Assembly (NCBI GenBank): GCA_951406725.2
Contig: OX597814.1
Span: 66,836,001 to 66,900,000, forward strand
DNA from: Octopus vulgaris
Lineage: Eukaryota
Length of the DNA: 64,000 nt
Direction of reading: 5' to 3'
Part shown: positions 8,146-63,686 of the stretch, in pieces
Position numbering within the stretch: the stretch's first letter is position 1
Layout of the letters: every line of letters starts with the position of its first letter
Translations under genes and position numbers: made by a program
The notes under the pieces: model-generated
What the model was told of the DNA's origin: nothing
Database searches by the model: none
What the model saw: the letters and a program-made list of their open reading frames with translations, nothing else

Positions 8146-8479
8146 TAATCTATGCGGATTAACTCAACAATAGCAGTCGTACATCTATTTCCATACTCTC
8201 TCTCACAGTATACTCTCTCTCTTTTTCTTTCTCTCTCCCTCTCTCGCACGCACACACACACACACACACATATATATGTGTGTGTGTATATAGATATATA
8301 TATATATATATATATATATATATATATATATATATATATATATATATATATATATATATATATATATACACACATATATATATATATATATATATATACA
8401 TATACATACATACATATATATATATATACACATACATACATACATACATACATACATACATATATATATATATAACGAA

Positions 8480-10612
8480 ATGAAGGAAGACATTACAGAA
8501 TTTTGTAGAAAATTGCGACTTAGTGAGGAACTATTCGACCAGCACAATGAGGATGAGTCACTAGCTAGAAATAAAAGCAACTACACCCCACCAAAAGGTA
8601 GAAATAAAATCCTAGACGAATTCTGTGAGCACATTACAAACTTCCCCTACCAACACTTACACAAACCAAAACCCAAACCAAACCTCAACAAGAAAGAGTG
8701 GGAAGAATTAAACAAATTAAAAAATGAAAGATCTATCACCATTAAAGAGGCCGATAAAGGAAGTGCAGTAGTCTTAATGGAGACAGAATACTATATCAAC
8801 TTAGCACTCTCCACCTTGGAAAATGGAACATATTACGAAAAGGCTGAACACTACAATCAACAGAAAATTATGAGAAACTTAAAAACCCTGATCAACCCCC
8901 ACAAAGAAGAACTCACTAACAAAGAATTCAACTTCATCACAAATTTCACTAGTAAAACCAGCCTCTTCTACGGTATTCCCAAAATTCATAAAAGCGAATT
9001 AATAAGTAAGGCATGCAAGGAAGCCACAAACTCTGTAATCAATGTCCCCTCACCAAATGACCTCAAATTGAGACCTATAATAGCAGGTCCCGCGTGCGAA
9101 ACCCACCGCCTTAGCAACTTCATTGATACCCTTCTCAAGCCGTTCCTCAAACACATTAAAAGCTACATAAGGGACGATCTAGATATGCTTAACCACCTCC
9201 CCAATACACTTCTTGCTGAACAAACCCTGCTAGTAACATTCGATGTAGTTAATCTTTACTCCAACATCCCCCACAACCTAGGAATAGAAGCTATCCAATT
9301 CTGGCTGGATAATTACTCCAACGAACTCCCACACCGCATCAAAAAGGAATTTATTTTAGAAGGACTCAAATTCATCTTAGAGAATAATTTCTTCACCTTC
9401 AACAACAAATTCTACAGACAGAAAATCAGGGACGGCAATGGGAACGAAGACAGCTCCCACTTACGCCAACCTAGTCATGGGATACCTGGAAATCACCCTC
9501 TATAATAACGTTCTTAACCACTCTCCACACACACATAGAGAAGAACTGGAAGAGATATCTTGATGACTGCTTCATCCTTTGGCCCGAAACCGTCGAGAAG
9601 CTTAAAGAATTTCACACCCTTATAAATGGGCTCAACACAAACATTATTTTCACAATGGAATACAGCCCTCAACAAATTCCCTTCCTCGACATCCTCATTA
9701 AAATTCACAACAAAAAAATAGAAACAGACATATACTACAAGCCCACAGACTCCAAGCAATACCTCCCTTTCAATTCATGCCACTCTAGACACGTTAAAAT
9801 TAACATTCCCTACAACTTAGCCAAGAGAATTTGCACTATAGTCTCCAATAAAAACACCCGTCTCTTACGTCTACAAGAACTCAAGGGCACATTAACAAGC
9901 AGGGATTACCCCACGTCACTAATTGACAATGGGATCCAACGCGCCCTAAAACTCAGCACACAGGAACTTAGACGCCCTAAACCTGTTACATCGAAACCCC
10001 ATACTCTACCATACATCTCTACACACAGCCCCCTCAACAATGAAGCTTTTGACACCATCCTCCAGAACATTCCTGTATTAAAAAAGGACCACAGAATGAA
10101 CCAAATCCTCCTAACACACGAAATCATAAAGAGCAAAAGGCAACCCAAATCATTGAAAACCATCCTAACAAATGCCAAAGTACTGCCAACCACAGCAACT
10201 AAACCCACAGTAAACAAATGCAATAGACCCAACTGTGGTATATGCATCAACCTAATAGAAGGTCCGGAATTCCTTTTTAAACAAGGACAACGTTTCACAG
10301 TAAAACACAACTTCACATGCGCATCAGAAAACCTAGTATATGTCTTAACTTGCTCGGGCTGTAATGAACACTACATAGGCCAAACTAAAAATAGCCTCCG
10401 CCAACGCATGACTGTCCACAGATCCCAAATAAAAATACAGGAATACAGAAAAATAGCACTTAGTGCACATATTGATACCTGTGCCGCACAACTCCATCCC
10501 AATTTTAGAATCTTTCCCCTCTACAAATTTAAAGACAATGCCACTCATACCCATGGAATCCCACCTTATTAATAAATACAGACCACTTCTAAACACATCC
10601 CCCTAACACGAA
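8480..10612 (+). pseudogene. PLE reverse transcriptase + GIY-YIG endonuclease, frameshifted
   Basis: [34 protein letters not shown] (after a frameshift near 9429), WKRYLDD, PFLD, YYKPT, CNRPNCGIC linker, LVYVLTCSGCNEHYIGQT. Confidence 0.93.
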
Positions 10613-11484
10613 CCCACAACAAACACACTTACACCTGCACACACCCTACACACACCTTTACCCAGATATTAACACCATGACACACGCAAATATATGGTTC
10701 CACACATACACATAATTGAATACGGGTGCAAAATATCCAACACTATTTTTTGGAAATGTCTGTAAATATTGACTTCACACAAACACGTTGCTTCCCGATA
10801 CAGGCACAAGGCCAGCAGAACTATAAATATTGAAAATTGTACCCACACACGCACACATATATACACGCGCGCGCGCCCCAACATATATATAAACACACAC
10901 ACACTCACACACACACACACACACATACACACACATACACACACACACGCGCGCGCGCGCACACACATACATACATACAGCTCTTCCTGTCCTAAACGAA
11001 CTTACTTATCCAGCTCAAATTCAGTCAAGCGGAAAATACACTCCCTAACTACGCACTGAAAAGCTATTTAAAATATCCACATGACGTCTACTGACCAGCC
11101 TGAACAATAAGAATTTTCAACAACGCTATTTTCGAAAATTCTAAACATTCACGTGACCTCTTTATTATGACCACATCCACGTGACCTCTTTATTATGACC
11201 AATAAGAAATTTTAGGCGCGACACTAGCCAAATTTTAACTTCTCTGGAGCCTTTTTTCTTACCCCAACACCAACTTCCATTCAAACATTCACGTGACCCC
11301 TTCATAATGACCAATCAAAATTGTATTGACCATTGTCCACAAGAAATTTTAGGCGCGAAACCAAGCAAATCCAAAACAACTCTGGAGCCTCTTTTTTCAC
11401 ATATAAGAGACAGCAAACCCAACATAAAGTCAGATAAGAGGAAAAAATCTATCAGAGAAGGAACTCTAATCTCTCTTTAAAAAA

Positions 11485-11526
11485 TATATTTTGATAAGCA
11501 TAACAAATGCGCAACCGGTAAAAAGA
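11485..11526 (+). ncRNA. Minimal type I hammerhead variant (U3-A8) in PLE1 3' end; mirror copy on minus at about 11744-11785
   Basis: TTGATAA-gcat-aacaa-atgc-GCAA-ccgg-TA. Stem II is 4 bp and stem III is the palindrome ACCGGT. A13C and a weak stem I suggest damage. Confidence 0.55.
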
Positions 11527-11875
11527 ACTTTCACCTAATTAAATTACATAAATTACTTAAATTATTTTGTCAGCATTTTCTTCATTTCCTTTTTATATAT
11601 CACAACTCGTGTTCCACATCTCCTTTTTTATATATATATATAAAAGGAGATGTGGAACACGAGTTGTGATATATAAAAAGGAAATGAAGAAAATGCTGAC
11701 AAAATAATTTAAGTAATTTAAGTAATTTAATTAGGTGAAAGTTCTTTTTACCGGTTGCGCATTTGTTATGCTTATCAAAATATATTTTTTAAAGAGAGAT
11801 TAGAGTTCCTTCTCTGATAGATTCTCTGATATATATATATATATATATATATATATATATATATATATATATATA

Positions 11876-61310: not shown

Positions 61311-61654
61311 AATACATATATACATACATACATATATACATACATACATACATACATATATATACATATATATATATACACATGCACATACATAGATGTA
61401 TACATACATATATATACATACATATACACACACATACATAAAGATGCGTGTAGATACGCACATGTATCTACACACACATATACATATATATATATATTTA
61501 TATATGTATCCATTCACATACACATACACATGCGTATATACATATATACACACATGCATGCATATATAGATACACACACACACACACACACACACATATA
61601 TATATATATATATATATATATATATATATATATATATATACATATACACACATC

Positions 61655-62000
61655 TAGATTGTAAAGTTACGTTTCTAAATGTTATTCGGATCTTCTTTTA
61701 GTATATAAAGTTTTAACACAGGAAATCCGAGTTGTAGGTGTTAGGTTTGCATTAGTTAGGTGTGGTTTAGATCGTTGTATGTGAATGTGCTTAGCTGTAT
61801 GCAGAAACTTGGGTAATTACTCCTTTGTTAACTATATTGAGAGTGGCTCTTCGGAACATAGCTGGCATTTCCGAGATAATGTATTATAGGGACTCGTATG
61901 TCTGATTATCAATATACCTGAAGAGACCTTGACTGATGGGTTGAAACAAATGTACCTAATAAAAGTCTAATATGAAATCCATCTCCTACTATTAATACTA
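61655..62000 (+). mobile_element. Microsatellite-flanked element with hammerhead remnant at 61914-61955
   Basis: atac-CTGAAGA-gacc-ttgactgatg-ggtt-GAAA-caaat-gtac. Confidence 0.55.
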
Positions 62001-63424
62001 TATGTGTGTGTGTTTTTATGTGTATATGTATATATATATGTATATATGTATATATATATATATATATATATATATATATATATATATATATATATATATA
62101 TATATATATATATATATATATATATATATATATATATATATATATATATATATATATGGATGCATGTATATATACATGTAGATTATATATTTGTGTGTAC
62201 ATATATGTATATACGCTTAGGTATAAAGGGTATCAGAAGTGGAATATCAATAGTAGTAATAAACAGGAACACAAAATAATTCTAGCCTGTGCCCATAAAT
62301 TTCCTCAGAAAAAAAAACTTTTACAATTCTTCACTGTCCTCTAAAGAAAATGATTTTCATTAGAATAATAATGAAAGACTGTTTTCTTTATCACAAGGAT
62401 CGCCGGTTTTGGGTACTGACATATTTTTTTACCACCTTTCTCTCTCTCGCTCTCTCTCTTTCTCTTTTGTCTTCATATTATCGAAATTCTGGATGTCGAT
62501 ATTTTTTAACGCTTAAACCATCACACATATATTTTTAAAAGGCAATTTTTATATCCAACATAACGTAGATGCTTTGTTAGAACGCCGAACAATGCAGTAA
62601 CCAACTTGAGAGAGCCTCTCATATGGACTCTTGCTGCATAAAAGCATACATATTTATATTGTTGGCAGACGTGTATCGTCTGCCATGGGCGCCAGAACTA
62701 ACAGGTCATGTGATTTCGACGTACTGCATCTCTTCAGTTACAGCTATCCGCTGGCCGCATACCAGACAAATCCCACAGTCAACGATATATAGAATAGCTG
62801 TAACTCTTCAGGCGCTGATGTCGCAAATAGCCACCAGGTTTATTAAAAGATAATGGCAGTTCCAGTGCCAATAGCAGACGATTCATGTCCGCCACCGATA
62901 TAAATATGTGTGCTTTTATGCACCAAGCATCCATATGAGAGGTCCTCTGAAAGGGAATGGCACAATATTTGGTATTCTAACAAAGTATCCACTTTAAGTT
63001 GAACATAAAGATTGCCTTTTGCTATTAATACGGCTTCTGTCACAAAAAAATTATATATATATATGTATACACACACACATATTTATATATATATATATAT
63101 ATATATATATATATATATATATATATATATATATATACATATATATATAATTTCAATGGAGGTAATACCAGCGGAAAACTAGAGAACATGACCAATAGAA
63201 TATTCAATATATATGTAGACTTTCATTGAACATTAATAAATCAATATAAAGTTCCGGATAATACAGTAGTAAAACATACAAGTATATGAACATGTAATTT
63301 TTAATATTTAAAAATACGCAAATATTTAAAAATACGCAAATATTTAAAAATATATTTTTAAATATTTAAAAAATACGTTGGCATTATAAATGTATAAATA
63401 CATAATTAGATATCTATTTGTATA

Positions 63425-63686
63425 TCTATTTATGCGGCGAGTCCTTTCTTGTTACCACTTTTGCTTTGCAAGGACTGTTTCAACGAAGTTGCGTCTTGTC
63501 CTTACCTTAGAAAAGGCGGAGTAGATGAAACAGGGACAACTGAAGAAGGGGAATATTCCTTGTATTGTATGTTTTGTTTCTCTGTGTTTTTTTTTTTCGT
63601 TGTTCGAAAAATGTTCTTTTCTATGTTTTTGTTTTTATGTTTTCGTTTCTCATTGTGTTCAACTTTTTTGATGTCCTGTACCCATA
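63425..63686 (+). mobile_element. Family J non-coding element in TA-rich context
   Basis: Structured segment followed by a T-rich tail ending gtcctgtacccatata, reminiscent of the family D tail ttcttgtcccat. Confidence 0.55.
63469..63561 (+). ncRNA. Candidate permuted hammerhead, unrelated sequence family
   Basis: aagg-a-ctgtttca-acgaagtt-gcgTC-ttgtcc-tta-cctta-GAAA-aggcggagtaga-tgaaacag-ggacaa-CTGAAGA-aggggaatattcct. P (8 bp) and I (6 bp) are perfect; III is damaged. Confidence 0.55.

Follow-up and report, generated by a model that had tools for sequence, protein, structure and literature searches.

Hammerhead motifs in a 64-kb octopus window

The window analysed here is a 64,000-nucleotide stretch of the Octopus vulgaris genome (GenBank assembly GCA_951406725.2, contig OX597814.1, positions 66,836,001 to 66,900,000 of the forward strand; positions below count from its first nucleotide). 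It is rich in microsatellites, and it holds remnants of Penelope-like retroelements (PLEs) together with short repeats whose motifs resemble the hammerhead ribozyme. A sequence-only reading of this DNA had proposed that many unrelated hammerhead families occur here, partly as terminal fragments of PLEs and partly as non-autonomous elements, almost all of them bordered by (TA)n, (AAT)n or similar tracts, and our analysis bears this picture out in part. We lettered the motif groups on its list by their positions in kilobases: A (11.5), B (16.1/17.1), C (32.7), D (33.0/37.2), E (37.5/37.8), F (49.9/57.8/60.7), G (53.3), H (58.4), I (58.9/59.4/59.6), J (60.2/61.9) and K (63.5). For each group we searched the genome (2.8 Gb in 227 contigs) and took the 30 best-matching loci with 1.5-kb flanks, to which we added 18 loci for long D copies, 20 loci from a protein search with PLE1 (the parent of A), ten targeted stretches and a background sample of 80 evenly spaced 10-kb stretches (800 kb). 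Sampled loci outside the window carry the labels L0xx to L4xx. The output of a repeat finder on the window itself was dominated by microsatellites.

All 11 groups are dispersed, genome-wide repeat families (at least 40 matches in each search; D was judged from copies in background loci). In nine of them the majority consensus contains a type I hammerhead with a palindromic stem III and with stems I, II and III in type I order, the core tested being C3 U4 G5 A6 N7 G8 A9 / G12 A13 A14 / A15.1-U16.1 / H17; all six palindromes named in the sequence-only reading are present in these consensuses. Seventeen window copies of the nine families map where motifs had been placed, with 11491, 17070, 32716, 37214, 37484, 37776, 53267, 58467, 59583 and 61918 on the plus strand and 11778, 16116, 32682, 33012, 58893, 59450 and 60259 on the minus strand. 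The 58.4-kb ribozyme spans 58467-58563 with a long stem II and does not lie at the CUGAAGA word at 58371. The density is one copy per 3.8 kb, and only 5 of the 17 satisfy a strict descriptor that requires the type I structure with a palindromic stem III, and are thus near-intact. In the 800-kb sample the same families have 28 copies, one per 29 kb; the window is richer than average, by a ratio that is biased because the families were picked from it.

With the strict descriptor, the window gives six matches, of which five are real and one, at 13109, is spurious; 100 dinucleotide shuffles gave a mean of 0.14, and none of them reached six. The 800-kb sample gives 31 matches against 1-5 in five shuffles. 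A loose descriptor, which does not demand the palindrome, barely exceeds chance (5 against a mean of 1.0 in the window; 23 against 12-17 in the sample). Scaling the 800-kb matches to the genome suggests, as a rough extrapolation, some 100,000 near-intact motifs.

The consensus cores vary in family-specific ways. They are canonical in B, E, I and J, and the first box is canonical in 43 of 44 I copies, 10 of 12 E copies and 18 of 21 J copies; the I motif has a U-U at the base of stem II. A Watson-Crick 3-8 pair is kept across all nine consensuses in three forms, C-G, U-A and G-C, with compensated pairs in C (G3-C8 in 43/45 parsed copies) and G (U3-A8 in 23/26). Uncompensated changes also occur: D carries A6U in all 42 parsed copies, and the H consensus has U4C, its stem II measuring 9 bp and the loop about 65 nt. 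The A consensus has U3-A8 plus A13C and a weak 2-bp stem I, position 13 being C or U in 57/57 motifs and GAA standing at core positions 12-14 in none of the 57. A complete core was found on neither strand in the 30-copy consensuses of F and K, and none of the type II and III topologies that we tried on them, in part by eye and with the opposite strand included, fits; the sequence-only list of motif groups stands for nine entries and falls for these two. The K consensus retains the first box, stem II and stem I, its GAA box being gone, and may be a hammerhead relic.

Rfam returned no family at gathering score in the window or in 14 loci. Among the matches listed (150 of 240) it gave only microsatellite-driven microRNA matches, and in two short stretches scanned it matched neither a transfer RNA (tRNA) nor a hammerhead. 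On balance, the reality of the motifs is largely confirmed, and their cores are predicted to be self-cleaving RNAs. Dimeric hammerhead variants of PLEs have reportedly been described by Lünse et al. in 2017 and may already include some of the cores found here. Eight of nine predicted Xenopus dimers failed to cleave (bioRxiv 10.64898/2026.07.22.740005), weak natural variants with U4C or A6C are known (PMC3088659), and U3-A8, an extra base after A9 and a palindromic stem III have been reported for PLE hammerheads (PMC4209133). We found no publication naming natural G3-C8, A6U or A13C families in a literature search whose journal coverage was incomplete.

Six families are 3' ends of coding elements

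Judged by their longer copies, six of the nine hammerhead families are the 3' ends of coding PLEs: the Neptune-like A, D and G, the Hydra-like H and J, and the Poseidon-like B. The claim that almost all motifs sit in short non-coding inserts was too strong, since these six run upstream into endonuclease or reverse transcriptase (RT) remnants and F and K lack the core; likewise, the proposed Neptune-like partners are right for A, D and G but are joined by Hydra-like and Poseidon-like ones. Coding linkage was first screened with Neptune-like proteins only. Under that screen B, D, H and J passed as non-coding, an assignment overturned by longer copies and by the endonuclease remnants of other clades, which we recognised by translation; Pfam gave no GIY-YIG match for the H fragments.

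PLE1 is a Neptune-like element on the plus strand. Its 5'-truncated, frameshifted open reading frame (ORF) for RT and GIY-YIG (8475..10572) begins directly after (TA)n, and its 3' untranslated region (UTR), family A (10573..11634), holds the U3-A8, A13C motif with weak stem I at 11491-11520 and finishes at a short end with a tail of about 35 nt. A fold-back copy of this 3' end follows on the minus strand (11635..11823; second A motif at 11749-11778), the 189-nt arms being 99% identical; the two lie tail-to-tail across a short (AT)n at 11446-11823, contrary to the head-to-head rule seen elsewhere. A PLE ORF was matched in 14/30 A loci, and the 20-locus protein search yielded at least ten open PLE1 frames of 784 amino acids, 96-98% identical, which match the RVT_1 and GIY-YIG domains. 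PLE2 (50363..53400, plus strand) is degraded and Neptune-like, with an upstream ORF remnant, RT and GIY-YIG; its 3' UTR is family G, with the U3-A8 hammerhead at 53267-53299 (plus) and a PLE ORF in 27/30 loci. D is represented by a Neptune-like 3' end with the A6U core at 32854..33077 (minus; motif 32985-33012) and by a copy of an older subfamily at 37190..37340 (plus; motif 37214-37241), and a GIY-YIG domain with a CX4CxxC linker lies about 1 kb upstream in 3 of the 18 loci of long D copies. PLE1, PLE2 and the D parent all show the Neptune signature, a CX2-5CxxC linker plus the CCHH motif, which is common to Nematis too.

PLE3 (L404, L405) is a third Neptune-like family: many of its 784-aa frames are intact, its tandem units measure 4.4 kb, and its U3-A8 hammerhead is clean. 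Each of the three Neptune-like families whose ORFs are intact or nearly so combines U3-A8 with an ACCGGT stem III. Three Neptune-like families carry an upstream ORF of about 440 aa whose overlap with the RT ORF falls on a conserved heptamer, TTTTTTA (frames HFLD / FFR; window 50995-51002, L401:2200-2210, L405:5782-5792). This overlap is likely a programmed -1 frameshift; our literature search, with its incomplete journal coverage, found no report of one in Neptune.

The endonuclease of B lacks the cysteine linker, which we take to mark it as Poseidon-like. In the window B forms a head-to-head pair of 3' ends (16020..17156) with decayed hammerheads at 16083-16116 (minus) and 17070-17102 (plus), an endonuclease C-terminal remnant (16351-16425), a tRNA-like segment (about 16414-16560), an internal (AAT)n and another repeat inserted at about 16570-16945. 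The order within the element is endonuclease end, tRNA-like segment, (AAT)n and hammerhead, and the segment contains words resembling the A and B boxes of RNA polymerase III promoters; ARAGORN calls no tRNA there (0/9 loci) and Rfam gives no tRNA match. Among 44 head-bearing B arms, 7 reach the GIY-YIG endonuclease, 28 start close to the position predicted as +1 of the tRNA-like segment, and 9 are truncated within that segment. The pile-up at +1 would fit either a SINE-like RNA (SINE, short interspersed nuclear element) started by RNA polymerase III or the joining of two complementary DNAs (cDNAs) at a short palindrome there.

H (58275..58612, plus) is a Hydra-like 3' end whose decayed hammerhead carries U4C in the consensus. 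About 1 kb upstream, in 13/30 loci, it leads to an endonuclease whose motifs are CxCX5C, CxxC and CxH. J is joined to a remnant like that of H in L251, L246, L243 and the window; L251 and L246 show the remnant, the internal microsatellite and the hammerhead as one collinear array. The window copy of J (60000..62000) is a single head-to-head insertion. Its left arm (minus) contains the endonuclease remnant (61909-61820), the internal microsatellite, a nested F, a decayed motif (60223-60259) and a 160-nt tail, and its right arm contains the motif at 61918-61954 and a short end. The H and J translations show the CxCX5C linker, no CCHH, and CxxC and CxH around E and N, with (TA)n targets, which is the Hydra-clade signature (PMC8557442, section 11).

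Protein-free families

The remaining three hammerhead families appear to be non-coding: I, with a 560-bp tandem unit, and E, with a 300-bp unit, as retrozymes, and C as a 215-nt element. A non-coding tandem unit with one type I hammerhead, the mark of a non-LTR (long terminal repeat) retrozyme, was found in I and E; C has no tandem, and F and K have no core. The sequence-only reading had staked its non-autonomous part on some family being other than a coding PLE end, and that part survives because I, E and C remain non-coding.

In the window I is a head-to-head insertion of a young retrozyme (58663..59915) with three intact motifs at 58849-58893 (minus), 59406-59450 (minus) and 59583-59627 (plus). 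The left arm has about 1.5 units and ends at the short site, the right arm has 0.8 unit and ends at the long site, and the junction shares 7 nt of microhomology. The I unit has a period of 556-560 bp, is tandem in 16/30 loci in arms of up to 4.3 units, and is 95-99% identical; its longest ATG ORF is 99 aa, and no ORF is continuous with the unit. A look-up for RNA records containing it listed none; contigs of four sequencing runs of uncertain kind cover it, and some join unit end to start, which tandem DNA would explain equally well. E (37481..37890, plus) comprises about 1.4 units of a non-coding tandem retrozyme of about 300 bp, with a period of 292-304 bp in 5/30 loci and a PLE match in 0/30; the window motifs at 37484 and 37776 are mutated, and the consensus is canonical.

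C is a palindromic head-to-head pair (32500..32840) with G3-C8 hammerheads at 32646-32682 (minus) and 32716-32752 (plus), a tail on the left arm only and (TA)n on both sides. It is tandem in 0/30 loci and self-inverted in 25/30, with a single fixed centre in 24 of those 25; single C arms start at one shared 5' point with unrelated DNA upstream, and a short word is complementary between their 5' and 3' ends. A read-through transcript of the window palindrome would fold into a perfect hairpin, a long double-stranded RNA hiding both ribozymes. A tie of C to PLE1 3' ends was considered, as C lies beside two intact PLE1 copies, but it is not enriched there (1/30 and 1/20 loci).

Two further families are non-coding tandem units without a complete core. 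F has a unit of about 770 bp and lies at 49791..50024 (plus), at 57649..57990 (minus) and, nested in J, at 60554..61149 (minus); K has a unit of about 740 bp and lies at 63460..63796 (plus).

Insertion footprints

The 3' ends of coding and protein-free families alike adjoin a dinucleotide microsatellite directly in far more copies than the 9% background: A 45/48, G 25/32, J 21/29, H 21/33 and D 18/33 among the former, and E 16/35, F 20/35 and K 18/32 among the others. In I, (TA)n stands at both outer ends of 11/12 complete insertions. The microsatellite borders that had been noted thus hold mostly for (TA)n, but they fail for B, whose 3' ends adjoin such a tract in 2/37 and whose (AAT)n is internal to the element and not its target. 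At 58275-62200, H, I, J and F form a nested cluster, each lying in or beside the (TA)n tract of the preceding element.

Most families have two 3' ends, a short and a long one, 35-160 nt apart, this distance being the tail; the second end was not resolved for D and E. Head-to-head insertions pair the two. Each of the 12 complete I insertions combines a short end (219-245) with a long one (328-337), and two more run off the locus edge. Of the 23 distinct C palindromes, 19 carry a tail on a single arm and four are tailless; none has two tails. The coding families combine one short and one long end in 19/22 (A 6/7, G 2/2, J 3/4, B 6/7, H 2/2), one uninformative D pair being left out. An inverted 5'-truncated arm with a tail at one end, as expected of endonuclease-bearing (EN+) PLEs, is present here. 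The I arms meet at any phase of the unit and in most cases overlap by 1-7 nt. The difference between the two arms is 0.34% within an insertion, compared with 1.47% from one insertion to another; markers shared between arms are concordant in 32 cases and discordant in eight, four of these at the short-end junction. The window I insertion is not one cDNA folding back, because its right arm has the long end that is absent from the left, and the left arm is the longer.

A probable common Penelope-type origin and its alternatives

We interpret the window as containing 3'-end fragments of at least six coding PLE families, together with five repeats that encode no protein (a hammerhead is predicted in three, and two have no complete core), all likely written by Penelope-type enzymes, and we put the probability of this interpretation at roughly 85%. 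Under the mechanism that we infer, the GIY-YIG endonuclease would cut both strands of a TA-rich target, and an RT, probably dimeric, would use each cut end to start a cDNA on one and the same RNA, at two fixed positions inside it; the 35-160 nt between these positions would give the tail. The two cDNAs would then meet head to head and be joined through 0-7 nt of microhomology, and most would stop early, leaving stubs that carry a hammerhead. The template of I and E is likely a ribozyme-cut circle or multimer, because their arms reach 4.3 units and end at no fixed phase. Ribozyme cleavage itself is likely dispensable for spread, because A13C occurs throughout a family whose ORFs are intact and the core is missing from two tandem families.

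Of the other explanations that we weighed, the one with the best chance, though still an unlikely one, takes every family as the 5'-truncated ends (solo pseudo-LTRs, pLTRs) of coding PLEs and the tandems as local duplications or partial tandems, with no non-autonomous elements. Six of the nine hammerhead families did prove to be coding ends, four of them only on a second look, and local tandem amplification from a PLE terminus has been proposed (Li et al. 2026). However, I keeps its constant period at many unlinked loci, with arms of up to 2411 nt that hold no sequence from outside the unit in 30/30 loci, and in E, F and K the element's own 3' end recurs upstream with a fixed period; for I, a purely solo-pLTR origin is already unlikely. 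Rather less probable is a DNA-level origin of the inverted structures, C being a DNA transposon like a miniature inverted-repeat transposable element (MITE) and the head-to-head pairs arising by fold-back or gene conversion after insertion. The near-perfect hairpin of C with its fixed centre, its position in (TA)n, the subfamily markers shared between arms in C and I, and the PLE1 end in the window, which is a true tail-to-tail fold-back, would all suit such an origin, but the ends of C are asymmetric, its single arms share a 5' start downstream of unrelated DNA, and the two I arms differ in their ends and are unrelated in length. A chance origin of the motifs in AT-rich repeats, with no ribozyme ancestry, is very improbable: the few copies that pass the descriptor, the empty Rfam search, the weak excess of the loose descriptor and the failure of F and K are what chance would give, whereas nine unrelated consensuses that hold stems I-III in register and keep the 3-8 pair in three forms, together with the strict-descriptor excess over shuffles, are not.

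Several points weigh against a common Penelope-type origin. The markers common to both I arms could come from gene conversion or from a single source locus. Comparison of I, E, C, F and K with seven coding 3' UTRs revealed no parent UTR, with TA-tract matches only, and the non-coding calls rest on the 30 best loci with their 1.5-kb flanks. C in particular may yet prove to be a coding PLE end whose long copies were missed, because four families looked non-coding until longer copies and the endonucleases of other clades were used. Our clade labels, hence 'Neptune-like' and so on, follow motifs rather than a tree, and the coding link of D was established for the N7=G subfamily, not for the subfamilies of the window copies.

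Within the Penelope-type interpretation, a broader and more tentative scheme, to which we give somewhat less than even odds, would extend to octopus-type genomes with about 100,000 motifs. In it, a Penelope dimer would copy one RNA twice, from two fixed starts and on opposite strands. The RNAs copied would come from coding elements and circular retrozymes, but also from units with a dead ribozyme and from a SINE with a tRNA head that arose within a Poseidon-like 3' UTR. Cleavage would be optional, so that the natural cores G3-C8, A6U, U4C and A13C could become fixed in whole families.

Relation to known systems

PLEs are known to leave inverted truncated copies, often with a tail on one end (PMC8557442), and the elements described here share with canonical EN+ PLEs (Neptune/Nematis, Hydra and Penelope/Poseidon) the C-terminal GIY-YIG, 5' truncation, the inverted truncated copy, the one-end tail and the (TA)n bias (PMC4209133, PMC8557442). 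Their hammerheads likewise share the type I fold, the palindromic stem III, the extra nucleotide after A9 and the U3-A8 variant (PMC4209133, PMC8557442), and the U-U at the base of stem II in family I is common to Hydra-clade motifs (PMC8557442, file S2). Unlike canonical PLEs, the octopus families include whole families fixed for A13C, A6U or U4C; tails here reach 160 nt, one Poseidon-like 3' UTR contains both a tRNA-like segment and (AAT)n, and three Neptune-like families show the TTTTTTA overlap. The supplement of PMC8557442 includes Hydra-1_Obim from Octopus, with a hammerhead; beyond that paper our literature search, within incomplete journal coverage, yielded nothing on these families.

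Retrozymes form circles, and their dependence on PLEs has been proposed or shown by homology (PMC7229834; bioRxiv 10.64898/2026.07.22.740005). I and E resemble the metazoan non-LTR retrozymes of these papers in being low-GC, non-coding tandem units of a few hundred bases, each with one type I hammerhead, in a PLE-bearing genome. However, the available parts of those papers name no cephalopod, the PLE link here consists of insertion footprints and not of sequence homology, and C is a non-tandem monomer. The Anolis Poseidon element PAc provides the closest biochemical parallel: in vitro, both strands are cut and extended, two internal RT start sites define a tail, a dimer is predicted, insertion occurs without ribozyme cleavage, and a G3-C8 double mutant is partly active (PMC11167929). 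The two start sites with their tail, the extension on both strands, the dimer and the dispensable cleavage are likenesses to our scheme. The parts of that work available to us describe neither one-short-one-long pairing in head-to-head insertions nor non-coding templates, and G3-C8, engineered there, is the natural consensus of family C here.

The finding itself is unsurprising, because PLE hammerheads and PLE-linked retrozymes were already known. Its value is that of a natural test set: the end rule common to coding and protein-free families supports the proposed mobilisation of retrozymes by Penelope and makes the unexplained structure of inverted arm plus tail testable. The intact 784-aa ORFs and the 98%-identical retrozyme offer a ready enzyme and template, and families fixed for variant or lost cores bear on whether PLE ribozymes are needed at all.

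Other repeats

Other mobile-element remnants in the window are a mariner-like ORF (13664-14167, recognised by eye), the end of a non-LTR RT (19802-20338, a weak zf-RVT match), a Tc1-like transposase (40662-41228) and PIF1 helicase fragments (42176-43206). The short repeat at 5084-5930, 20670-20886 and 56809-57417, which is very abundant and has tandem units of 183 bp, is probably a SINE. Outside the sequence-only reading's groups, a further abundant family with a canonical or U4C core occurs at L038, L064, L071, L094, L095, L101, L104 and L107, and L067 holds a U3-A8 family that repeats at 1335 bp.

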